Part shown: positions 1 through 9,467 of the stretch, piece by piece
How positions within the stretch are numbered: position 1 is the stretch's first letter
Layout of the letters: every line of letters begins with the position of its first letter
IMG/VR virus record: IMGVR_UViG_2695420579_000007
From: a virus
Lineage: Duplodnaviria; Heunggongvirae; Uroviricota; Caudoviricetes
Length of the DNA: 9,467 nt
Reading direction: 5' to 3' (one strand)
Notes under the pieces: model-generated
Told to the model about the DNA's origin: nothing
Database searches by the model: none
Seen by the model: only the letters and a program-made list of their open reading frames with translations
Made by a program: the position numbers and the translations under genes

Positions 1-162
1 AAACACTATCAATAAGTTGGAGTCATTACCAAACGGTTGAAATGTATGCCGCTACTTACGGGTCCTGTAATCCTCTGAATAAACCAGAGGGAAAAGATGA
101 TTTCGACAAAATTTACCGCTTCTTGGAGGACCGCTATATCAAAAGCTTAGAGGACGCAGGGA

Positions 163-540
163 TCAAATCCCCAGTGAAGTCACCATTGTCCTGAGAACTT
201 GCAGAACGTCATGATCATAACTTCCATCCAAACCGCGACGGCGAATTGCTTCTCGTATTACCGGAAGCAGTTCGCTGGAAATCTCGGTGCATATTTCACC
301 TGATAATACGCTTGGCTCAAGTGAGAATATTGGTGAACTTACGGTCTTGGTCTCGACAGTTTCAGAGTCAGTGCCAACATTATAAAGCTCAACGAAAGCG
401 GTCTTGATTTTCCGGGCCAGATCTTTTGCTGGCTCGCTTGCAATATCTTTCCCGATTTCTCGCAGCACAGAATGCAATGTATGAGCTGCTGTTTTCTGTA
501 CATCAGACGGTAAATCTTTAAATTCCATCGTCAGCCTCAT
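163..540 (-). CDS. hypothetical protein (125 aa; possibly 121 aa from ATG at 528), distal gene of a two-gene early-left cassette
   Basis: ORF in track. Start ATG at 540-538 overlaps the upstream stop (TGATG); an internal ATG at 528 has a better SD (GAGG about 7 nt upstream). Acidic protein with no motif I recognise. Same strand as and downstream of the OL-like operators. Confidence 0.5.
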   Translation of the reverse strand: MRLTMEFKDLPSDVQKTAAHTLHSVLREIGKDIASEPAKDLARKIKTAFVELYNVGTDSETVETKTVSSPIFSLEPSVLSGEICTEISSELLPVIREAIRRRGLDGSYDHDVLQVLRTMVTSLGI

Positions 541-746
541 CAGTCAGTGTTTCTGGCTAACCAGCAACGCGCGCCAGATTCGGTTTTAAACGTTTTGCTT
601 TTGGTATACGTCATGGCGGTAAACGTTCCATCCTGGTTAGGGAACACGCCGCACACCAGAGATTCGTTGTTGCCAAGATCGATAGTATCCATGCTGACCT
701 CATTTCCCCTTAACGCCGGGGTGGCGGAACAAAAAACCTGCTGCAT
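540..746 (-). CDS. small hypothetical protein (68 aa as drawn; more likely 50 aa from ATG at 692)
   Basis: ORF in track. ATG at 746 has a weak RBS; internal ATG at 692-690 is preceded by GAGGT with a 4-nt spacer. Stop TGA (542-540) overlaps the start of the 125-aa gene, suggesting translational coupling. No recognisable family. Confidence 0.4.
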   Translation of the reverse strand: MQQVFCSATPALRGNEVSMDTIDLGNNESLVCGVFPNQDGTFTAMTYTKSKTFKTESGARCWLARNTD

Positions 747-873
747 AGTTAAAGATTGAACCCTGCCGTCATGTTCTTACGCCTCGGGCTGGCTACTTAA
801 CCCCTGACCACTGTCTGGTAACTCGAAGTATTGCCCTGCATTCTGTGGGGCGGGGTGGGTTGACGCCTGAAAC

Positions 874-915
874 AATAGCATCATTATTTTTTTTGATGTA
901 AATAGCATCGCTATT
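874..915. promoter_or_regulatory. OL-like operator pair, probable early-left promoter region
   Basis: Two 15-bp dyads: AATAGC-ATC-ATTATT at 874-888 and the perfect dyad AATAGC-ATC-GCTATT at 901-915, 27 bp centre to centre. Same consensus (AATAGY-N3-RCTATT) as the two dyads between the divergent regulator genes at 2012-2051. Lies between the terminator and the leftward cassette. Confidence 0.5.
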
Positions 916-930
916 GTTTTTTGTTGGGGC

Positions 931-955
931 AAGAAAAAACCACCCTAAGGTGGTT
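931..955 (-). terminator. Rho-independent terminator of the regulator-antitoxin-toxin operon
   Basis: On the minus strand: stem AACCACC / GGTGGTT with a 4-nt loop (938-955), followed by a U-run (TTTTTTCTT, reverse complement of 931-939). Begins 17 nt after the toxin stop at 972. Confidence 0.55.
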
Positions 956-971
956 CTGTCGGCGGGAATAA

Positions 972-1262
972 TTAACTGTTTTTGCCTGGATACTGTCTTC
1001 GAGAATGCACAATATTTACTACTTCTATGCTTGATGCTGTTACTCGGTAAAGGATGATGTAGTTAGGATGAGTTACAATTTCACGAAGACCAAGAACTCG
1101 CTCGCTTGGAGGATACAGGTAAGGATGCTCTGTGAGCGGCAAAACGGATGTTTCAATTCGAATTTTCATTCTGCGTGCTGCCGCGGGATTTTCTTTAGCT
1201 ATGTAGGCTACGATCTGGCGCAAATCATCACGAGCAGATGGTAGCCATAAAACGGGTAACAT
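972..1262 (-). CDS. parE: ParE/RelE-fold type II toxin (96 aa), ParE2-like
   Basis: 96-aa ORF with the characteristic C-terminal region (LREIVTHPNYIILYRV...IEVVNIVHSRR). Start overlaps the upstream antitoxin stop (TAATG). Third gene of a regulator-antitoxin-toxin operon, as in the paaR-paaA-parE systems of E. coli O157 prophages. Confidence 0.85.
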   Translation of the reverse strand: MLPVLWLPSARDDLRQIVAYIAKENPAAARRMKIRIETSVLPLTEHPYLYPPSERVLGLREIVTHPNYIILYRVTASSIEVVNIVHSRRQYPGKNS

Positions 1263-1456
1263 TATTCACCTCTGTGAGTTGCAGCAGCAATTTGGGCAAT
1301 AATTTGTTCCATTTCCGCCATTACCTCATCATGCGGAATCGCCGGGCGGGGATCCGCGAGGCTTGCTGCTACTTTGGCCCGCAGCCATTCGTTGTAACTA
1401 TTTTCTTGCTCAACTGTCTCAAATTCTGAAACCATTGGGGAAAGGACTGTACTCAT
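1262..1456 (-). CDS. paaA: PaaA-like antitoxin (64 aa)
   Basis: Small acidic protein (SPMVSEFETVEQENSYNEWLRAKVA...) immediately upstream of and overlapping the ParE-like toxin gene. AGGAGA SD about 12 nt upstream of ATG 1456. Closely matches PaaA2 antitoxin as I recall it. Confidence 0.8.
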   Translation of the reverse strand: MSTVLSPMVSEFETVEQENSYNEWLRAKVAASLADPRPAIPHDEVMAEMEQIIAQIAAATHRGE

Positions 1457-1475
1457 TTTACATATCTCCTCTGAT

Positions 1476-2006
1476 TTAGGCGCGACGGCCTTTTTGTGCA
1501 GCTAACCACCGCGCAACCGTACGATCCATTGATTCTTTTTTATCTTTCATCTCCTGAAGCATGTGTTCTTGATCTTCTTTCGGAAAAGCTCTGAACGTAT
1601 GGATTAAATCTCGTTCCATCGGCTCTACGGCAAACGGTAGTTCATCCTCTGTTTGTTCTGTGTCTGCTGGTAATGCGACTATGTTATCTTGCTGTGGTTC
1701 TCGACAATACATCCTTGCAATTTGCAGCAAATCTACCATGTCTGGCCTGATTGACTCAGGGGGAACTTTCAGTAAGCCAGCAAACTTTAGAACAGCCTCA
1801 AGGTTTAGTGGGGTTTGACCATTTAGGTAGTGACTTACCGCCCCTTGTGTTGAAAACCCCATAATTTCCGCCGCACGTTCCTGAGTCAATCCCAACTGAG
1901 ATTTCTTTGCCATCCAGATTTCTTTCAGTCTTCTGGCGGCGTTGAGGTCGGTGTCTGACAATGATTTTCTTTTCATACATCCAATTCTAATAAGATTGCT
2001 AATCAC
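1476..2006 (-). CDS. paaR: CI-type HTH (XRE-family) transcriptional regulator, PaaR-like prophage repressor (176 aa; start possibly at the internal Met 11)
   Basis: N-terminal HTH (LTQERAAEIMGFSTQGAVSHYLNG). No S24 peptidase-like C-terminal domain recognisable. First gene of the operon and divergent from the Cro-like gene across an operator-bearing intergenic region. Confidence 0.75.
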   Translation of the reverse strand: MISNLIRIGCMKRKSLSDTDLNAARRLKEIWMAKKSQLGLTQERAAEIMGFSTQGAVSHYLNGQTPLNLEAVLKFAGLLKVPPESIRPDMVDLLQIARMYCREPQQDNIVALPADTEQTEDELPFAVEPMERDLIHTFRAFPKEDQEHMLQEMKDKKESMDRTVARWLAAQKGRRA

Positions 2007-2087
2007 TTTGAAATAGTATCACTATTTACTTTTAAAAATAACAGTGCTATTAATTATGCATTGGTAACACATCACATAGGGCGGATT
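2007..2087. promoter_or_regulatory. OR-like divergent promoter/operator region
   Basis: Perfect dyad AATAGT-ATC-ACTATT at 2012-2026 and near-dyad AATAAC-AGT-GCTATT at 2037-2051, 25 bp apart. Candidate rightward promoter: -35 TTTACT (2025-2030), 17-nt spacer, -10 TATTAAT (2048-2054) overlapping the second dyad. Candidate leftward extended -10 (TGaTACTAT, minus strand) overlapping the first dyad. Confidence 0.45.
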
Positions 2088-2351
2088 ATGAATCTTGGAG
2101 AATATTTGCATCATTTTCATATAACCCAGAGTTCATTTGCTGAGATTGTTGGCGCATCCCAAGGGATGGTCAGCCACGTTATAACGGGGCGTGCAAAACT
2201 TACAGGAGAAAAAATATTACGTTGGTGTGAAGCAACGGGATGGGTGGTGACCCCACATGAGATTGACAGTAAAACCTACCCCAACCCAACTGACGGCTTG
2301 CCTGCTGAGTTTCAGGCTAACACACAACCATCGGCGGGGGTTGATTCATGA
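2088..2351 (+). CDS. ydaS: Cro-like HTH protein (YdaS family), 87 aa
   Basis: Track ORF begins at TTG 2061; I prefer ATG 2088 (MNLGEYL...), which has an SD-like AGGGCGG upstream. HTH segment QSSFAEIVGASQGMVSHVITG. Stop overlaps the next gene start (ATGA at 2348-2351). Confidence 0.7.
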   Translation: MNLGEYLHHFHITQSSFAEIVGASQGMVSHVITGRAKLTGEKILRWCEATGWVVTPHEIDSKTYPNPTDGLPAEFQANTQPSAGVDS

Positions 2352-2773
2352 AAATCAAGCATGAACACATCCGCATGGCGATGAAAGCCTGGGCGCATCC
2401 GGACGGTGAAAAAGTTCCGGCAGCTGAAATAACCAGGGTTTATTTCGAACTGGGAATGACGTTTCCGGTTCTGCATAACGACAGCAAGCACAACACGCTT
2501 TATCTCAACACCCAAAAGATTTTCCGTTGGCTGGATAAAGACACCCCTGACGCTGTTGAAAAAATTCAGGCGTTGTTACCTGCGATCGAAAGGGCAATGC
2601 CACCTCCGCTGGTGGCTCGAATGCGCAGCCACAGTTCAGCTTATTTTCGGGAACTGGTGGAGACGCATGAACGACTGGTGAGAGACGCTGATGATTTTGT
2701 CGCAGTGGCAATCGCCGGTTTCAATCAGATGAACCGTGGTGGCCCGGCAGGAAATGCTGTGGCAGTACATTGA
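2348..2773 (+). CDS. ydaT: YdaT-like protein (141 aa), proposed CII-type regulator of Rac/CP-933P-like prophages
   Basis: N-terminus MKIKHEHI... matches the YdaT family as I recall it. Translationally coupled to the Cro-like gene. Sits where cII sits in lambda. Confidence 0.75.
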   Translation: MKIKHEHIRMAMKAWAHPDGEKVPAAEITRVYFELGMTFPVLHNDSKHNTLYLNTQKIFRWLDKDTPDAVEKIQALLPAIERAMPPPLVARMRSHSSAYFRELVETHERLVRDADDFVAVAIAGFNQMNRGGPAGNAVAVH

Positions 2774-2844
2774 CTGACAATAGCCATATCGAATCGCTCC
2801 CGGCAACTCGTGAGTAAAAAGATTCGGTATCAGAAGAGGTGAGT

Positions 2845-3909
2845 ATGGCTAACGCCTGGCTCAGATTATGGCATGACATGCCAAATGACCCTAAGTGGCG
2901 AACAATTGCCAGGGTGTCAGGGCAGCCAATTGCAACAGTGATGGCAGTGTATATCCACCTCCTGGTGAGCGCGTCACGAAATGTCACGCGAGGTCACATT
3001 GATGTCACGACAGAAGATTTGGCAAGTGCGCTCGACGTGACAGAAGAGGTAATTGATTCAATTTTGCAGACGATGCAGGGGCGGGTACTTGATGGTGATT
3101 TAATCACTGGATGGGAAAAACGCCAGGTGCTTAAAGAGGACAACGGCAATATTTCGCAAACCGCAAAATCTCCTGCAGAGCGCAAGAGGGCGCAGCGAGA
3201 GAGGGAAAGAAAGCGGGAACAAAATGGCGATTGTCACGGCGCGTCACGAAATGTCACGCACATGTCACGACGAGTCACGACAGATACAGATAAAGATACA
3301 GATAAAGAAGATCAAAACACTATGGTCCATGGCGTAAAAAACGCCACGAACCAGGCAGGGGATGTTCAGACCGTCAATCCTGGTCAGCCAGCAGGCTCGA
3401 CACCGGAAGCCGATTCAGCGTATGCGCTGAAAGCCGATTCGGGCGCTGTGCAGCAGGTGATGACCGCAAGGCCGGAGCAATCACTCCAACTGCAGCAGCC
3501 TGAAGCCGATTCCGCCATTCAGCGGGAAGCCGATCGGGTAGCCCCGGAAAACACCGGGCAGCCTGTGGGACGAGTGGATTATCCGGATGTGTTCGAACAG
3601 GTCTGGCGGGAATACCCGTTGCGTGCCGGGGCAAACCCGAAGAAATCCGCATTCAGTGCCTGGAAGGCCAGATTGCGCGAGGGGGTGCCACCAGAGACCA
3701 TGCTGGATGGTGTGAGGCGTTACGCGAGATACCTGGCGGCGACCGGGAAAGCGGGAACGGAATTTGTTCAGCGAGCGACGACGTTTTTTGGGCCGGACCG
3801 GAATTTTGAAAACCCCTGGTTGCTCCCGGTAAGCGGCACGAACAACCAGCGTTGTGTGAATCATATTTCTGAACCGGATACCGAAATTCCGCCGGGATTC
3901 AGGGGGTGA
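2845..3909 (+). CDS. phage replication initiation / replisome organiser protein (O-like), about 354 aa
   Basis: Track ORF starts at GTG 2839; ATG 2845 has GAGGTGA 7 nt upstream. Basic linker (AERKRAQRERERKRE). Two iteron clusters inside the gene. Ends IPPGFRG, 6 nt before the DnaC-like gene. A paralogous C-terminus is seen at 7429-7698. Confidence 0.8.
   Translation: MANAWLRLWHDMPNDPKWRTIARVSGQPIATVMAVYIHLLVSASRNVTRGHIDVTTEDLASALDVTEEVIDSILQTMQGRVLDGDLITGWEKRQVLKEDNGNISQTAKSPAERKRAQRERERKREQNGDCHGASRNVTHMSRRVTTDTDKDTDKEDQNTMVHGVKNATNQAGDVQTVNPGQPAGSTPEADSAYALKADSGAVQQVMTARPEQSLQLQQPEADSAIQREADRVAPENTGQPVGRVDYPDVFEQVWREYPLRAGANPKKSAFSAWKARLREGVPPETMLDGVRRYARYLAATGKAGTEFVQRATTFFGPDRNFENPWLLPVSGTNNQRCVNHISEPDTEIPPGFRG
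2971..3041. repeat. iteron cluster A: four direct GTCAC(G/A) repeats in helical phase plus one inverted copy
   Basis: GTCACG at 2973, 2983 and 3004 and GTCACA at 2993 (spacings 10, 10, 11 bp); inverted CGTGAC at 3036-3041. The 19-mer GCGTCACGAAATGTCACGC (2971-2989) recurs exactly at 3241-3259. Confidence 0.55.
3233..3306. repeat. iteron cluster B (five phased GTCACG repeats) followed by an A-rich 12-bp tandem duplication; candidate replication origin
   Basis: GTCACG at 3233, 3243, 3253, 3264, 3274 (spacings 10, 10, 11, 10 bp), then GATACAGATAAA twice (3283-3294 and 3295-3306). Iterons plus an adjacent A-rich stretch inside the initiator gene parallels lambda ori inside gene O. Confidence 0.5.
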
Positions 3910-3915
3910 TGTGGC

Positions 3916-4662
3916 ATGAAAAACATTGCGGCAGCCGGGGTTCTTGAACGTATTCACAGACTTGCACCACAGGGGGCGGTTCCACCGTACCGGACGGTGG
4001 AGGAGTGGCGGGAATGGCAACTTGCTGAAGGACGAAAACGCAGCGAGGAGATTAACCGCCAGAATCGCCAGTTGCGGGTGGAAAAAATCCTGAATCGTTC
4101 GGGCATCCAGCCTCTGCACAGCAAATGCTCGTTTGCGAATTATCAGGTGCAGAACGACGGGCAAAAATACGCGCTGAGCCAGGCCAAATCCATAGCTGAC
4201 GAACTGATGACCGGGTGCACGAATTTTGTGTTCAGCGGTAAAACCGGCACCGGGAAAAATCACCTTGCAGCGGCGATGGGTAACCGGCTGATGGCGAAGG
4301 GGCGCAGCGTGATTATCGTCACCGAGTCTGATGTCATGAGCGTGTTGCATGACAGCTACGACAACGGCAAATCCGGTGAAAAATTTTTACAGGAGCTTTG
4401 CGGGGTTGATTTGCTGGTCCTGGATGAAATAGGCATTCAGCGGGAGACGAAAAACGAGCAGGTGGTATTGCACCAGATAATTGATCGCCGGACAGCATCA
4501 CTGTGCAGTGTCGGGATGTTAACAAACCTGAATCATGCCGCAATGAGCACGCTTCTTGGTGAGAGGATTATGGACCGCATGACCATGAACGGTTGTCGGT
4601 GGGTGACGTTTAACTGGGATAGCTGGCGTTCAAATGTCAGCTTTCCGGGAGTTGTGAAGTAA
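3916..4662 (+). CDS. DnaC-like helicase loader (IstB-like AAA+ ATPase), prophage replication protein, 248 aa
   Basis: Walker A (SGKTGTGKNHLAAA) and Walker B (LLVLDEIG) motifs. SD GGGGGTGA upstream of ATG 3916. Follows the O-like gene by 6 nt. Confidence 0.9.
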   Translation: MKNIAAAGVLERIHRLAPQGAVPPYRTVEEWREWQLAEGRKRSEEINRQNRQLRVEKILNRSGIQPLHSKCSFANYQVQNDGQKYALSQAKSIADELMTGCTNFVFSGKTGTGKNHLAAAMGNRLMAKGRSVIIVTESDVMSVLHDSYDNGKSGEKFLQELCGVDLLVLDEIGIQRETKNEQVVLHQIIDRRTASLCSVGMLTNLNHAAMSTLLGERIMDRMTMNGCRWVTFNWDSWRSNVSFPGVVK

Positions 4663-4683
4663 TTTTTGTTGGAGGATGTTTTA

Positions 4684-5409
4684 ATGGAAACTGTATTTGA
4701 CGCACTGAAAGCACTGAAAAGAGCCTCTTCACATGTGGTGGCGTCCCGCCTTGGAATCAGCCGTGAAGATGCGGTCAACGAACTGTGGAAACTGAAGCGC
4801 CGTGGTGAAGCGGATAACAAGGGTTCGATGTGGTGGCTGATTCAGGCTGGTGAAAGTGAACCAGTGTCACCGGTACCGAAAGTGACAGCGCAAATGCTGA
4901 CTGAGGCGATTGAACAACATGGCCCACAAACGGCGGATGAGCTGGCACTGATGTTCGGGATTACCTCCCGCCGGGCGAATTCATCGCTGGCCATGGCAAT
5001 CAGCAAAGGGCGTCTGATTCGCGTGAATCAGGGCGGTAAATTTCGGTACTGCATACCGGGCGCTGATTTACCGGCAGAGCCGAAAGCCGCATCCATAGCG
5101 GAAACGGATGGTAAAGTCTTTCCTCAGCCAGCAGGTGTTGCGTTACCGGTACAGGAAGCTGCAACACAGGAAGAAATTAAAACAGAAACTGTGGCGGACA
5201 TTGTGCAGTCGTTGCCATCGTTCACCGAAACGCAAGCGGATGACCTGGTTTTACCATCGCTGCATATGGCAAACCGCGAACTGCGTCGGGCGAAAAGTCA
5301 TGTCCAGAAGTGGGAGCGTGTCTGCGCCGCGTTGCGGGAGCTGAACAAGCACCGGGATATTGTTCGACAGATTGTCGATTCCTCCGGTCGTATTGTGTCG
5401 GAAAAGTGA
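4684..5409 (+). CDS. hypothetical protein, possibly winged-helix, 241 aa
   Basis: Track ORF starts at TTG 4666; ATG 4684 has GGAGGA 9 nt upstream. Follows the DnaC-like gene. No catalytic motif recognised. Confidence 0.6.
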
Positions 5410-5424
5410 TTGCCGGGGGCGCTT

Positions 5425-5556
5425 ATGGCAAAAGTATTTACACAGGAAGAGCGGGAAAAAATTAAGGGGCAGGTTGTTGAACTCGTACGCCAGAGTGGGC
5501 GCGAGACGTTACGACAACGCTCCGATGGAAAGCTTCTGGGGAACGCTGAAAAATGA
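5425..5556 (+). pseudogene. truncated 5' fragment of a small gene (31 native codons), fused out of frame to IS600-derived sequence
   Basis: ATG 5425; MAKVFTQEEREKIKGQVVELVRQSGRETLRQ is native up to 5518, then reads IS600 interior to a stop at 5554-5556. 5467-5518 is identical to 9052-9103, where the rest of the gene continues after the N gap. Confidence 0.6.
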
Positions 5557-5756
5557 GAGCCTGAGCCACTATCGTTTTAATAACCGGGATGAAGCCATCT
5601 CAGTAATACGGGAATACATTGAGATTTTCTACAATCGTCAGCGTCGTCACTCTCGTCTGGGGAATATCTCCCCGGCAGCCTTCAGGGAAAAATATCATCA
5701 GATGGCTGCTTAAAAAAAGAACAAATGGTAGTGTCCGCTATTGCCAGTACACCTCA
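5519..5756 (+). mobile_element. partial IS600 copy: 238-bp right-end fragment in inverted orientation relative to the complete IS600
   Basis: Exact reverse complement of 5758-5995, ending in the IS terminus ...CCTCA at 5756. Carries the last 65 codons of the transposase frame. Its inner boundary is an IS-interior position, not an IS end, so it is not a simple transposition product. Confidence 0.8.
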
Positions 5757-5800
5757 NTGAGGTGTACTGGCAATAGCGGACACTACCATTTGTTCTTTTT

Positions 5801-6619
5801 TTAAGCAGCCATCTGATGATATTTTTCCCTGAAGGCTGCCGGGGAGATATTCCCCAGACGAGAGTGACGACGCTGACGATTGTAGAAAATCTCAATGTAT
5901 TCCCGTATTACTGAGATGGCTTCATCCCGGTTATTAAAACGATAGTGGCTCAGGCTCTCATTTTTCAGCGTTCCCCAGAAGCTTTCCATCGGAGCGTTGT
6001 CGTAACAGTTACCTTTACGCGACATTGATGTTTTCAGACCAGACTGCTCCTGTATGACCCGGTAATCGTATGCGCAGTACTGTGAACCTCGATCAGAGTG
6101 GTGGATTAGCCCGGCAGGTGGGCGCTGGCTCCTGAGCGCCATAAACAGGGCTTTACCTGTCAGCTCTTTTGTCATGCGCTCTCCCATGGCGTAGCCGACA
6201 ATTTCGCACGTATAAACATCTTTGATGCCAGCGAGGTACAACCATCCCTCCTGTGTGGCAACATACGTCAGGTCCGCCACCCAGACCTGATTTGGTGCTG
6301 TAGGAGCGAACGTCTGGTTCAGCAGATTTGGCGCAACTGGCAGATTGTGGTTCGAGTTCGTAGTCGCTCTGAACTTGCGTTTCTGCTTACAGCGTAGCCT
6401 TAGCTCCTTACGAAGACGTGCCAGTCGGTCACGACCAACGATGATGCCATTCTCTGCCAGCTCCGTCTGGAGCCGCCGGGTTCCATATGTTTCGCGAGTG
6501 CGGATATGTGCCACCTTAATCTCCAGTTTTAGCCGCTCATCACTTTGTTTTCTGTCTGAGGGTTCATGCTGTACCCAGTTGTAATAACCGCTCCTGGATA
6601 CACCAAATACCTGACACAT
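5801..6619 (-). CDS. IS600 OrfB (DDE transposase catalytic domain), 272 aa as an independent ORF; expressed as OrfAB fusion by -1 frameshifting
   Basis: The OrfB frame is open upstream of ATG 6619 back through the slippery site. Frame is -1 relative to OrfA. Confidence 0.9.
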   Translation of the reverse strand: MCQVFGVSRSGYYNWVQHEPSDRKQSDERLKLEIKVAHIRTRETYGTRRLQTELAENGIIVGRDRLARLRKELRLRCKQKRKFRATTNSNHNLPVAPNLLNQTFAPTAPNQVWVADLTYVATQEGWLYLAGIKDVYTCEIVGYAMGERMTKELTGKALFMALRSQRPPAGLIHHSDRGSQYCAYDYRVIQEQSGLKTSMSRKGNCYDNAPMESFWGTLKNESLSHYRFNNRDEAISVIREYIEIFYNRQRRHSRLGNISPAAFREKYHQMAA

Positions 6620-6654
6620 CGCTTCAATGGGAAATTGTTGTCGCCATTGTTCGA

Positions 6655-6957
6655 TTAACGCGTATTTTTCAGCGACTCCTGTGCAAAATACGCTGTTGCT
6701 TTTTTTAATATATCTCGCTCAAGGCGAGCTTCATTTAACGCCTTACGCAGTTGCAGAATTTCAGATTCCAGTTCAGCCACCGTGCGGGAACCAGGAGTAC
6801 CGAGCCCTTTTCTGGCGGCGGTAACCCATTGTCCTAAAGTGCCTTCAGGAAGAGATAATCGGGAAGCGCCTTCACTGATCGAAAGTTGATTTTCAAGAAC
6901 CGTTCTGACAGCTTCGGCTTTGAACTCTTTAGAGTAACGTTGGGTTTTTCTGCTCAT
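6655..6957 (-). CDS. IS600 OrfA (IS3-family transposase N-terminal HTH protein), 100 aa
   Basis: 100-aa ORF with HTH and leucine-zipper-like C-terminus (LRKALNEARLERDILKKATAYFA). Contains the frameshift heptamer near its 3' end. Confidence 0.9.
   Translation of the reverse strand: MSRKTQRYSKEFKAEAVRTVLENQLSISEGASRLSLPEGTLGQWVTAARKGLGTPGSRTVAELESEILQLRKALNEARLERDILKKATAYFAQESLKNTR
6700..6706 (-). promoter_or_regulatory. programmed -1 ribosomal frameshift slippery heptamer (A AAA AAA, then G) of IS600
   Basis: Minus strand reads TTA AAA AAA GCA in the OrfA frame. The -1 frame is open from here into OrfB (...ILKK then SNSVFCTGVAEKYALIEQWRQQFPIEAMCQVFG...). Confidence 0.6.
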
Positions 6958-7021
6958 TATTAGCTCCTTCTGATGCCATTCTATTTCAGGAAGGAGTGTC
7001 CGTTAAACTCAGGCTACCTCA

Positions 7022-7698
7022 GGTTATTCGCTTCTGGGCATGGGCGGATCAACAAATGATAGACGGTAATGCAGATTGTAACGCTCGCGGCGTTACAAAA
7101 AGTGCAATAGATCGCATCACTTTTATGTCTGGTTTTGCTGATGCGTTAATTCAGGTTGGATGGCTGGTCGAAAATGACGGAGGGCTTTCTCTACCTAACT
7201 TTGAACGTCATAACGGAAAAAGCTCTAAAAAAAACGGGCGGTTACAAACGAGCGAGTAACAAAAATACGCGAACTGAAACGAAAAGGTAACGCTGCCAGC
7301 GTTACACAAACGGATCAAAAAGCGTTACCAGAGGAAGAGGAAGAGGAAGATCTAAATACTGATCTCCCCCTCGCCAAAAACGAGCGTCTAAAAAATTCGA
7401 GCCGGAGGCTATTGAGCTGCCCGATTGGTTGCCGGAAACACTCTGGCATGAGTGGGTCCGGTTCAGACAGGCATTGCGAAAACCGATTCGAACGGAGCAG
7501 GGCGCTAACGGGGCGATACGGGAACTGGAAAAATTCCGTCAGCAGGGTTTTACACCTGAGCAGGTGATTCGACACAGCATCGCCAATGAATACCAGGGCC
7601 TGTTCGCGCCGAAAGGTGTTCGGCCTGAGACGTTGCTCCGACAGGTTAACACCGTCTCGTTGCCGGACAGTGCGATCCCGCCAGGCTTCAGGGGGTAA
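7022..7698 (+). pseudogene. second O-like replication initiator gene: 5' end removed by IS600 and two frameshifts at poly-A runs
   Basis: Reading frame starts directly at the IS600 boundary (VIRFWAWADQQ..., resembling AWLRLWHDMPND near the N-terminus of the first O-like protein). Frame changes at A8 (7227-7234) and at A6 (7390-7395). C-terminus ends IPPGFRG 6 nt before the DnaC-like gene, exactly as in module 1. No GTCACG iterons. Confidence 0.7.
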
Positions 7699-7704
7699 CG
7701 GACC

Positions 7705-8451
7705 ATGAAAAATATTGCGACAGGCGGCGTTCTGGAACGCATCCGCCGACTGACCCCGCCACATGTAACCGCCCCATTCAGAACGGTAGCGGAGTGGCGC
7801 GAGTGGCAACTTGCTGAAGGCCAGAAACGTAGCGAGGAGATCAACCGCCTGAATCGCCAGTTGCGGGTGGAAAAAATTCTGAATCGCTCAGGCATCCAGC
7901 CGTTGCACCGTAAATGCTCGTTTGCGAATTACCAGGTGCAGAACGACGGCCAGCGATACGCGTTAAGCCAGGCGAAATCCATCGCCGATGAACTGATGAC
8001 CGGGTGTACAAATTTTGCGTTCAGCGGAAAACCTGGTACCGGGAAGAATCACTTAGCGGCAGCTATCGGGAATCGCCTGCTGAAAGACGGTCAGACAGTG
8101 ATTGTGGTTACCGTGGCTGATGTTATGAGCGCCCTGCACGCCAGCTATGACGACGGGCAGTCAGGCGAAAAATTTTTGCGGGAGCTGTGCGAAGTGGATC
8201 TGCTGGTTCTTGATGAAATTGGCATTCAGCGCGAGACGAAAAACGAGCAGGTGGTGCTGCACCAGATTGTTGATCGCCGGACAGCGTCGATGCGCAGCGT
8301 GGGGATGCTGACAAACCTGAACTATGAGGTGATGAAAACATTGCTCGGCGAGCGGGTGATGGATCGCATGGTCATGAACGGCGGGCGCTGGGTGAATTTT
8401 AACTGGGAGAGCTGGCGTCCGAATGTTAGCCATTCGAGGGTTGTTAAGTAG
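7705..8451 (+). CDS. DnaC-like helicase loader, second paralogue (248 aa)
   Basis: Collinear with the 3916-4662 protein at high identity (roughly 85% by eye); Walker A SGKPGTGKNHLAAA and Walker B LLVLDEIG. Confidence 0.9.
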   Translation: MKNIATGGVLERIRRLTPPHVTAPFRTVAEWREWQLAEGQKRSEEINRLNRQLRVEKILNRSGIQPLHRKCSFANYQVQNDGQRYALSQAKSIADELMTGCTNFAFSGKPGTGKNHLAAAIGNRLLKDGQTVIVVTVADVMSALHASYDDGQSGEKFLRELCEVDLLVLDEIGIQRETKNEQVVLHQIVDRRTASMRSVGMLTNLNYEVMKTLLGERVMDRMVMNGGRWVNFNWESWRPNVSHSRVVK

Positions 8452-8465
8452 TTTCAGGAGGATTT

Positions 8466-8824
8466 ATGGCGAAACCTTTTACTCCCGAACAGCGGGAAGA
8501 ACTGAAGACGCGAATTGTGGAACTCGTGCATCAGGACGGTCGGGTCACGATTCGGCAGTTGTCAGATGAAACAGGTATCAGTCGTGCGTCTGTCGGTCGC
8601 TTATGCATAGAACTGGTCGCAAGTGGTGATGTATATAATTCTGGCTACGGCTTATTCCCGTCTGAACAGGCTCGCAAGGACTGGCAAAGCGCCCGCAAAA
8701 AACTCTCGAGAGTAAAGGTGAGGAAACCGGTTGTTGTTGATCCGGACCTTATCTGGTCATTACCTGACGGAGAAATACGCCGCTACGACAGGCGCCTGAA
8801 TATAATCTGTCGCGAGTGCCGGAA
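8466..8824 (+). CDS. small HTH-like hypothetical protein, paralogue of the gene truncated at 5425; 3' end lost in the N gap
   Basis: ATG 8466 with CAGGAGGA SD. N-terminus MAKPFTPEQREELKTRIVELV. C-terminal half nearly identical to the post-gap copy (ELVASGDVYNSGYGLFPSEQARKDWQ...PDLIWSLPDGEIRRYDR...IICRECRK). Confidence 0.65.
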
Positions 8825-9051
8825 NNNNNNNNNNNNNNNNNNNNNNNNNNNNNNNNNNNNNNNNNNNNNNNNNNNNNNNNNNNNNNNNNNNNNNNNNNNN
8901 NNNNNNNNNNNNNNNNNNNNNNNNNNNNNNNNNNNNNNNNNNNNNNNNNNNNNNNNNNNNNNNNNNNNNNNNNNNNNNNNNNNNNNNNNNNNNNNNNNNN
9001 NNNNNNNNNNNNNNNNNNNNNNNNNNNNNNNNNNNNNNNNNNNNNNNNNNN
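8825..9051. other. assembly gap (227 N)
   Basis: Run of n characters. The flanks are two near-identical gene copies, so this looks like a repeat-induced scaffold break. Confidence 1.
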
Positions 9052-9432
9052 GGGCAGGTTGTTGAACTCGTACGCCAGAGTGGGCGCGAGACGTTACGAC
9101 AACTGGAAGCTAAAACCGGGGCGACAAGATATTTAATAAGCGTTCTCGCCAGAGAGCTGGTTGCCAGTGGGGATGTATACAACTCTGGCTACGGGTTATT
9201 CCCGTCTGAACAGGCTCGTAAGGACTGGCAAAACGCCCGCAAAAAACTCTCGAGGGCAAAGCTGAAGAAACCATCTGTGGTTGATCCGGACCTTATCTGG
9301 TCATTACCGGACGGAGAAATACGCCGCTACGACAGACATCAGAACATAATCTGTCGCGAGTGCCGGAAGAGTGAAGTTATGCAGCGTGTACCGGCTTTCT
9401 ATCAGGGTGATTTTCAGGAGGCGGTACTGTGA
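9052..9432 (+). CDS. 3' portion of the small HTH-like gene whose 5' end is at 5425-5518; partial because the 5' end falls in the gap
   Basis: 9052-9103 is identical to 5467-5518 and the frame continues (GQVVELVRQSGRETLRQLEAKTGATRYLISVLARELVASGDVYNSG...) to TGA at 9430-9432. Confidence 0.6.
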   Translation, partial: GQVVELVRQSGRETLRQLEAKTGATRYLISVLARELVASGDVYNSGYGLFPSEQARKDWQNARKKLSRAKLKKPSVVDPDLIWSLPDGEIRRYDRHQNIICRECRKSEVMQRVPAFYQGDFQEAVL

Positions 9433-9467
9433 GTGAAATTAGCTATCAGGCTTCAATTACCGCTGGC
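9429..9467 (+). CDS. 5' end of a downstream gene running off the window
   Basis: GTG 9429 overlaps the preceding stop (GTGA), with CAGGAGG 8 nt upstream. Open frame VSEISYQASITAG to the window end. Confidence 0.35.
   Translation, partial: MSEISYQASITAG

Follow-up and report, generated by a model that had tools for sequence, protein, structure and literature searches.

One of the nearest described counterparts of the DNA analysed here is a lambdoid prophage of Shigella sonnei Ss046. This prophage is defective, occupies about 1.656-1.666 Mb of CP000038.1 between dmsBC-type genes and ydfI, and has IS1 copies at its borders. Its gene order comprises PaaA2/ParE, cI, cro, a YdaT-like gene, an initiator gene, a DnaC-like gene, DUF1627, DUF977 and a next gene, the intact DUF977 gene being followed by a pair of genes for a methylase and a restriction enzyme and then by IS1. 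A second related system is the Rac-type ydaU-ydaV-DUF977 (ydaW) region, which in closed S. sonnei genomes belongs to a prophage remnant on the modABC side. The third one is the insertion sequence IS600 of the IS3 family. Sequences of all three systems occur in the window, i.e. in the complete stretch of 9,467 nucleotides from an IMG/VR virus record, which contains two replication modules in tandem. The elements involved are already known. The sequence comparisons presented below make it highly probable that the tandem modules are a scaffolding artefact, in which pieces of two known S. sonnei prophage remnants were chained at repeats.

Positions 1-5518 and 9052-9467 of the window are 100% identical to positions 6086-11603 and 11552-11967 of the Ss046 prophage segment L017 and share its gene order. 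The two stretches are contiguous in Ss046, and their overlap is exactly the 52-nt sequence that is duplicated in the window (5467-5518 equals 9052-9103). In contrast to the window, the Ss046 prophage contains neither IS600 nor a second module. Positions 5758-8824, which cover IS600, a ydaU remnant, ydaV and DUF977 copy 2, match the separate remnant adjoining modABC, with about 99.4% identity in closed S. sonnei chromosomes, and positions 7022-8824 are 99% identical in E. coli FDAARGOS_944 and FDAARGOS_943. The window differs from this Rac-type region in that it lacks the 5' end of ydaU and the immunity genes preceding IS600, with a contig of the other prophage in their place. Exact copies of both loaders, the DnaC-like protein of module 1 and YdaV of module 2, are encoded on single closed chromosomes, where the two genes lie far apart and point in opposite directions. 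In the two closed chromosomes carrying both modules in which the separation was measured, the modules are located at about 2.205 and 3.090 Mb (CP104423.1; 885 kb apart) and at about 2.168 and 3.063 Mb (CP146292.2; 895 kb apart). An earlier note on this DNA had read it as contigs of two related lambdoid prophages that shared repeats had brought into a non-native order, IS600 having entered the O-like gene of one of them, and had proposed a comparison with closed relatives. This comparison supports its reading, since the modules belong to separate, distant remnants; in closely related finished genomes the segments joined here lie apart, and their native neighbours could be identified.

The immunity region of remnant 1 was delimited at positions 1476-2773 from the genes called in closed genomes and their Pfam families. 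It includes a cI-like repressor gene on the minus strand (1476-1976/2006) and, on the plus strand, a cro-like gene (2088-2351) and a YdaT-family gene with a YdaT_toxin match (2348-2773). Module 1 starts with an open reading frame on the plus strand (2845-3909), also called in closed genomes, that specifies a putative replication initiator or replisome organiser of 354 amino acids. The motif GTCACG, with 11 matches compared with 4.0 expected, forms iteron-like arrays inside this gene at 2973-3041 and 3233-3279. The initiator gene downstream of cI and cro and the adjacent loader gene have the positions expected of a lambdoid module that would work like lambda O/P, and a GTCACG array of candidate iterons lies inside the initiator gene of module 1. 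Neither the 354-aa protein nor intact YdaU matched a Pfam family at E <= 0.01, and this includes the phage replication protein O family of lambda O; the sole hit is a weak similarity between the ~20 C-terminal residues and the C-terminus of DnaT. The designation 'O-like' is justified by gene position only. The next gene on the plus strand (3916-4662) encodes a DnaC/YdaV-family AAA+ helicase-loader-like protein (PF01695, E 3e-19; NCBIfam PRK12377, 499 bits) and is followed on the same strand by a DUF1627 gene (4684-5409; PF07789, E 6e-93) and the first 94 nt of DUF977 copy 1 (5425-5518). The native continuation of this copy is found at 9104-9432, and the gene is uninterrupted in Ss046 (L017 11510-11932) and in the draft contig L030. 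The terminal piece of the window (9052-9467, plus strand) accordingly carries nt 43-423 of DUF977 copy 1, ending at 9432, and the start of the next gene (9433-9467). The claim that the copy truncated at 5518 resumes exactly behind the gap was thereby verified.

Module 2 consists of the 3' part of a ydaU-type initiator gene, starting from nt 105 as aligned to the intact gene (7022-7698), the gene for the DnaC-family loader-like protein YdaV (7705-8451; RefSeq name ydaV at 99% identity; PRK12377, 510 bits) and the first 359 nt of DUF977 copy 2 (8466-8824), all on the plus strand. The latter gene is cut by the gap and has its full length of 423 nt at L020 10762-11184. The ydaU remnant contains a variable (GAGGAA)n tract at 7330-7350. 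It is a pseudogene because of the IS600 insertion, a frameshift in an A8 run at 7227-7234 that is A6 in the intact gene, and a 10-nt deletion after position 7364. The IS600/ydaU junction at 7022 is common to six IMG/VR contigs and several closed chromosomes.

The proteins of both initiator reading frames terminate in IPPGFRG, and 6 nt separate each stop codon from the ATG of the loader gene. The open reading frames, the parts of IS600, the gap, the 52-nt duplicate and these IPPGFRG ends lie where the earlier note had placed them, and the small gene behind each module is indeed present as paralogues, namely DUF977 copies 1 and 2. The DnaC-like genes, for which about 85% identity had been claimed, share 78.9% of their nucleotides and 200 of 248 residues (80.6%) of their proteins. 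Both loaders carry an IstB/DnaC-type ATPase domain along with the family score of DnaC/YdaV-family AAA+ loaders: they exceed the PRK12377 cut-off of 389 bits and remain with 296 (module 1) and 306 bits (module 2) below the cut-off of 357 for the chromosomal DnaC equivalog. The proposed collinearity holds for the order initiator-loader-DUF977, which occurs twice, but not for the DUF1627 gene between loader and DUF977, which module 2 lacks; the modules are only partly collinear. The repeated gene order might also be explained by an internal tandem duplication of the replication module within a single prophage. The loaders are, however, only 79% identical at the DNA level, an alignment of the module 1 initiator and intact YdaU (L021) over 240 positions has just 81 identities, aside from the common IPPGFRG tail, and closed genomes contain the two copies at different chromosomal sites, each with a separate immunity region. 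Such divergence and the separate sites rule out this duplication, to which we assign practically no probability.

The complete IS600 element of 1264 bp (5758-7021, minus strand) interrupts ydaU of remnant 2 and is 100% identical to IS600 copies of S. sonnei 53G; identical copies are annotated in RefSeq as IS600 with programmed frameshift. The overlapping reading frames orfA (6957-6655) and orfB (6619-5801) contain HTH_Tnp_1 (E 1.5e-20) and rve (E 9e-26) domains, respectively, and the NCBIfam model transpos_IS3 was matched with 334 bits at a cut-off of 160. The element ends with TGAGGTAGCCTGAG and TGAGGTGTACTGGC, which represent imperfect terminal inverted repeats starting with TGAGGT. Four closed chromosomes (L020, L024, L026 and L027) and contig L005 share the arrangement GAAGGT, IS600, GGTTATTCGC, in which GGT is present on both sides of the element; it occurs once in the intact ydaU of L021, and the window has kept the right-hand GGT only (7022-7024). 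The insertion in the closed genomes is a simple one, with a 3-bp target duplication, GGT in this case, into an otherwise continuous ydaU gene, the 5' end of which forms the native left flank. The insertion of IS600 into the O-like gene of one prophage, as stated in the earlier note, is thereby confirmed. In distinction from annotated copies, the window contains an additional IS600 fragment of 238 nt (5519-5756, plus strand) that begins internally, comprises the 3' end of orfB and everything up to the right end of the element (nt 1027-1264), and meets the full copy tail to tail. It is the perfect (100%) reverse complement of 5758-5995, lies in opposite orientation to the full copy and is missing at the corresponding place in Ss046. 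The tail-to-tail arrangement is not a transposition product, and the fragment is probably a non-native tail on the preceding piece.

The joins in the window coincide with N characters and repeats. A single n at 5757 sits between the IS600 ends, and its flanks are adjacent in none of the closed genomes examined. It forms the 1-nt spacer of a perfect palindrome with arms of 249 nt (5508-6006), which the earlier note had missed. A run of 227 N (8825-9051) lies between the DUF977 paralogues, and the sequences on its two sides map to different loci in closed genomes. The sequence of 52 nt is duplicated at the edges of the two outer pieces. The downstream genes of the remnants are paralogous as well, with exact repeats of up to 91 nt. 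The window most probably represents a draft-assembly scaffold of S. sonnei or a very close relative that is composed of three pieces of two defective lambdoid prophages. Piece 1 (1-5518, extended to 5756 by spurious IS600 sequence) belongs with piece 3 (9052-9467) to one remnant, in which they are natively contiguous, and piece 2 (5758-8824) to the second remnant next to modABC, with its simple IS600 insertion in the ydaU-type initiator gene. Owing to the paralogous DnaC-like, DUF977 and downstream genes, the exact repeats and the multi-copy IS elements that adjoin both remnants, the contigs were probably interleaved by homologous position (1a-2a-1b), with a scaffolding or contig-ordering step, the kind of which we infer, marking the joins by the single n and the 227-N run.

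Repeat-induced mis-scaffolding in short-read drafts is likewise characterized by N-marked joins with sequence shared by the edges of two pieces, by breakpoints that fall at the ends of IS elements or inside exact repeats between paralogues, and by the interleaving of two paralogous loci. Two draft scaffolds of different assemblies, L009 and L037, repeat the pattern, with pieces of these two loci alternating at single Ns (1a-N-2a-N-1b-N-2b). This recurrence backs the misjoin along with the non-adjacency of the segments, the contiguity of pieces 1 and 3 and the native flank of IS600. Additionally, the pair of methylase and restriction-enzyme genes was found downstream of module 1 in all 32 long contigs read, and the order DUF1627-DUF977-next gene was kept in 31 of them, the exception being L015 with an internal deletion. 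The native order is also retained in the unscaffolded IMG/VR contigs L030, L031, L035 and L039.

The alternative in the earlier note was a genuine IS-mediated fusion. Such a fusion of the two remnants in this strain, by recombination between inverted IS600 copies (an inversion of about 0.9 Mb) or by another IS600-mediated event, would place module 1, IS600 and module 2 in this order, so that the assembler had misplaced only the small piece with DUF977 and the next gene. The opposite orientation of the modules in closed chromosomes is the geometry needed for such an inversion, and in the closed chromosome CP146292.2 (L023) this same IS600 copy has a different flank as the outcome of a real rearrangement. 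Moreover, Shigella chromosomes carry 229-348 IS copies with variation from strain to strain (PMC7373316). The gapless contig L004 of 13.5 kb is 100% identical to 1-5518, 5758-7350, 7330-8824 and 9052-9467 and is the only support for the fusion by a contig; in it, module 1 is followed by the intact DUF977 gene and the next gene and, after about 96 nt, by IS600 and module 2. However, L004 is a mosaic that follows Ss046 only to L017 12332 and then continues with sequence seen at neither locus; among IMG/VR contigs and closed E. coli genomes the left junction of its IS600 is unique, and 314-nt direct repeats flank an internal IS1. Measured against closed genomes, a mosaic with unique junctions is ruled out as proof of a real tandem. 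An uninterrupted junction recurring in independent finished genomes was not found, L004 being the only gapless example, and IS600 with module 2 followed module 1 in 0 of the 32 long contigs. The order of the window is furthermore 1a-2a-1b instead of 1a-1b-2a, and the order 1a-2a-1b-2b, as continued in L009, is impossible in any single chromosome. A genuine fusion is quite unlikely on this evidence. The more specific proposal of a real tandem formed in this strain by an IS600-mediated event, such as the inversion of roughly 0.9 Mb, with the tail-to-tail junction and its microhomology breakpoint as the trace of a real inverted-repeat template switch, appears very unlikely. If true, the fusion would add one more IS-mediated rearrangement to a species already known for them.

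Mis-scaffolding as the preferred explanation differs from the usual pattern at the junction 5518/5519, where a breakpoint within 11 nt suggests a chimeric event in addition to mere mis-ordering. The word GTTACGACAAC (5508-5518, plus strand) is common to DUF977 copy 1 and IS600 nt 1016-1026, and the breakpoint falls within it, a detail absent from the earlier note. It is one of three 11-mers shared by the locus and IS600, about 3.5 being expected by chance. A software merge of blunt contig ends was rejected as its source, since a chance 11-nt suffix-prefix match is far too unlikely; GTTACGACAAC therefore probably caused the join, in a chimeric molecule or by real recombination. The DUF977/IS600 junction is probably a chimeric or erroneous extension at the shared word. 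Breakpoints inside short shared words are typical of microhomology-mediated events. The breakpoint could be real DNA within an otherwise mis-scaffolded layout. The 11-nt repeats would then have undergone RecA-independent recombination or a template switch, and the product would be present in part of the cultured cells or in an additional copy of the region. The breakpoint lies exactly in one of the three longest words that the locus has in common with IS600, which agrees with this view, as does the presence of both continuations of 5467-5518 in the assembly, which implies that reads supported both. Template switching during library amplification leaves, however, an identical signature, and long perfect palindromes such as the present one would be expected to be unstable in enterobacteria. 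No second instance of the junction turned up among 5,426 closed E. coli genomes, GTDB representatives, IMG/VR and JGI metagenomes, and no fusion protein with any of three possible starts is on record, which weighs little as the start choice of a gene caller may differ. A real breakpoint is thus considered unlikely. The abutting tail-to-tail IS600 junction was likewise absent from the 5,426 closed E. coli genomes, GTDB representatives and IMG/VR; six closed E. coli genomes contain tail-to-tail IS600 pairs, which are separated, since the matched places span 403-652 bp for a query of 136 bp. E. coli VL40 (H51), with IS600 near a DUF977 gene, was dismissed as a second case, the DUF1627 gene being the site of its IS600 insertion. 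No specific, verified scaffolder behaviour accounts for a breakpoint of 11 nt in the interior of IS600 or for the gap length of 227 N.

Draft assemblies of Shigella, with hundreds of IS elements and several paralogous prophage remnants per chromosome, can thus yield scaffolds that mimic chimeric or duplicated phage regions. Such scaffolds enter prophage collections, with similar ones present in IMG/VR, and could pass for novel mosaic phages or tandem replication modules.

The ends of the pieces yield no single k-mer size of an assembler, as the values disagree (30 nt of IS1, 34 nt of the 91-nt repeat and 52 nt of overlap). At its right end the window stops after 34 nt of the exact 91-nt repeat that remnant 2 also contains, and three of the four unscaffolded contigs in native order end inside the same repeat at nearly the last base of the window (L017 11967-11969). 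At its left end the window begins with the terminal 30 nt of an IS1 copy (1-30; position 1 equals L017 6086 and IS1 covers L017 5348-6115), i.e. at a repeat edge, as expected for a draft contig.

The full window was read, its open reading frames (ORFs) were listed and the sequence was compared against itself, and this self-comparison bore out the feature coordinates of the earlier note. According to the ORF list and the self-comparison, module 1 comprises an ORF in the initiator position (2845-3909) and a DnaC-like ORF (3916-4662). The self-comparison also delimited an IS600 fragment of 238 nt (5519-5756), which is separated by a single n at 5757 from a complete IS600 of 1264 bp on the minus strand (5758-7021). 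Module 2 follows with an initiator (ydaU) remnant (7022-7698), a second DnaC-like ORF (7705-8451) and a DUF977-type gene (copy 2) that starts at 8466 and is interrupted by a run of 227 Ns (8825-9051). The sequence beyond this run begins with an exact repeat, as 9052-9103 is identical to 5467-5518. The window opens with the terminal 30 nt of IS1 (1-30), so that its left end represents a repeat-bounded contig end. Additionally, a gene pair for a PaaA2 antitoxin and a ParE toxin adjoins the prophage repressor on the minus strand (972-1456); the respective Pfam families were taken from the gene calls of closed genomes.

Both DnaC-like loaders were located by exact-protein look-up in closed chromosomes of 4.5-5.0 Mb, including CP000038.1, which we take to be that of Shigella sonnei Ss046, and HE616528.1 of S. 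sonnei 53G. In the closed genomes, module 1 is followed by DUF1627, an intact DUF977 gene, a gene for a protein of 118/137 aa, a methylase and restriction-enzyme pair and IS1, within a prophage remnant that is bounded by dmsBC-type genes and ydfI. Module 2 sits in a separate remnant adjoining modABC. The two loaders lie 885 kb apart in CP104423.1 and 895 kb apart in CP146292.2, in opposite orientation in both. With respect to the Ss046 locus, window 1-5518 corresponds to 6086-11603 and window 9052-9467 to 11552-11967, each with 100% identity; these pieces therefore form a single continuous stretch and their overlap is the duplicated 52 nt. The intervening piece (5758-8824) aligns to positions 8037-11120 of another closed-chromosome locus (L020). 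Among the long module 1 contigs that were read, the methylase and restriction-enzyme pair is located downstream in 32 of 32 and the DUF1627, DUF977 and 118/137-aa genes are kept in 31, the exception (L015) having an internal deletion, and IS600 plus module 2 was found beside module 1 in none of the 32. The closed-genome comparison supports the reading preferred in the earlier note, which assumed two prophages, IS600 in one initiator gene and a repeat-driven, non-native joining. The tandem arrangement of the replication modules is very probably not genuine; the window would combine remnants of two known S. sonnei prophages that are separate from each other, joined non-natively at repeats, and the initiator gene of one of them carries IS600. 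Chromosomes of this species contain hundreds of IS copies (PMC7373316).

The IS element carries the orfA and orfB domains of the IS3 family as well as imperfect terminal repeats, and its sequence matches annotated IS600 copies with 100% identity. Module 2 is of the Rac type (ydaU-ydaV-DUF977) and shows 99% identity to two closed E. coli genomes with intact ydaU. Besides the IS insertion, the ydaU remnant differs from the intact gene in three respects: a run of eight instead of six A residues (7227-7234), the loss of 10 nt after 7364 and a (GAGGAA)n tract of reduced length. Three units of this tract are present both in the window (7330-7350) and in the L021 gene, in which ydaU is intact, compared with six in L020, a closed chromosome of the S. 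sonnei type, and seven in 53G, which may reflect either real length variation or repeat collapse in short-read assemblies. In one additional contig as well as in four closed chromosomes, GGT is present on both sides of IS600 within an otherwise continuous ydaU; the ydaU 5' end, which contains ATGGCTTCAAACTGG..., is therefore the native neighbour before 5758, rather than module 1. Moreover, the IS600/ydaU junction is present in six IMG/VR contigs, so the insertion is genuine and shared. Unlike the window and several closed chromosomes, 53G has a ydaU without IS600 (9189-9994 of its locus, L025), which makes the insertion lineage-specific. In the closed CP146292.2 chromosome (L023), the IS600 in ydaU is bordered on its left, at 8054, by ...GCGAGGCAGCTCAC instead of the ydaU 5' end, which for at least one finished genome indicates a genuine IS600-associated rearrangement at this copy.

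The fusion at 5518/5519 has two properties that the earlier note did not mention. The segment 5508-6006 is a perfect palindrome with arms of 249 nt and the n at its centre, and the switch from DUF977 to IS600 takes place inside the 11-nt word GTTACGACAAC, which is common to the gene and to IS600 nt 1016-1026. Since the breakpoint is at an internal IS600 position, it cannot have arisen by transposition. The locus and IS600 have three 11-mers in common, GTTACGACAAC among them, with about 3.5 expected by chance; the word is unremarkable in itself, yet the fact that the breakpoint falls exactly within it points to a switch driven by homology. The junction was absent from closed E. coli genomes, GTDB representatives, IMG/VR and JGI metagenomes, a search for it as a called fusion protein gave no match, and no abutting tail-to-tail IS600 pair was detected in any collection searched. 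Both continuations of 5467-5518 occur in the assembly and hence were present among the reads. The junction would most likely have originated from a chimeric molecule in the library or from erroneous extension at gap closing. It may instead represent a minority or real microhomology event, but a perfect palindrome of such a size would be expected to be unstable in enterobacterial cells, and this speaks against a real event.

The DUF1627/DUF977 copy 1 boundary was found in 14 IMG/VR contigs, and the unscaffolded contigs L030, L031, L035 and L039 keep the order of Ss046. Three of these four end at most 2 nt from the end point of the window, which is located inside a 91-nt exact repeat common to the genes downstream of both DUF977 copies. 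In two scaffolds with single Ns, L009 and L037, pieces of both loci are interleaved. With 1 and 2 denoting the remnants and a and b their successive parts, the order in L009 is 1a|N|2a|N|1b|N|2b, which is impossible in any single chromosome and is the outcome of ordering contigs of paralogous loci by homologous position or via collapsed repeats; the order of the window, 1a|n|2a|N227|1b, has the same pattern. In L037, which stems from another draft assembly, DUF977 copy 2 directly adjoins an IS600 end at about 7215-7235, as numbered with module 1 on the plus strand (...GAAGCTA|TGAGGTGTACTGGC); the uninterrupted target is TGCAGCGTGTACTGGC, and this insertion thus adjoins sequence resembling the end of IS600 itself. 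A strain-specific fusion of both remnants mediated by IS600 would place them in tandem. Such an arrangement is seen in the gapless contig L004, in which module 1 is followed by an intact DUF977, the gene after it, IS600 and module 2. However, L004 departs from the Ss046 sequence at position 12332 of its locus, its left IS600 junction occurs nowhere else in the sequences searched, and its internal IS1 is flanked not by a 9-bp duplication but by 314-nt direct repeats (9613-9926 and 10695-11008) of 97% identity, which suggests that two different paralogous copies were joined through this IS1. L004 was accordingly discounted as unreliable evidence for a real fusion, and such an event is considered highly improbable.

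The loaders of the two modules show identities of 78.9% (DNA) and 80.6% (protein), slightly less than the value of about 85% estimated previously. They score 499 and 510 bits against the NCBIfam model PRK12377 (cut-off 389) and remain under the NCBIfam cut-off for chromosomal DnaC, and by these sequence models both are assigned to the AAA+ proteins of the DnaC/YdaV family. Apart from the common IPPGFRG tail, the module 1 initiator and the intact YdaU of L021 have 81 identical residues over 240 aligned, and a DUF1627 gene is present in module 1 and absent from module 2. The previous designation of the initiators as O-like holds by gene position only, as no family was matched in a Pfam search with these proteins. 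Their last approximately 20 residues show a weak likeness to the DnaT C-terminus; the IPPGFRG tails (3886-3909 and 7675-7698) matched NF002770 (DnaT) with E values of 0.0016 and 0.006. A DnaT-like tail directly upstream of a DnaC-like gene echoes the chromosomal dnaT-dnaC arrangement. The hexamer GTCACG occurs 11 times in the window, with 4.0 expected and 11 reached in none of 200 shuffles. Nine of the 11 copies are clustered within the module 1 initiator gene (2973-3041 and 3233-3279), five of them in one run with a spacing of about 10-11 nt, and by analogy with lambda this cluster looks like a putative iteron-type origin inside the initiator gene.
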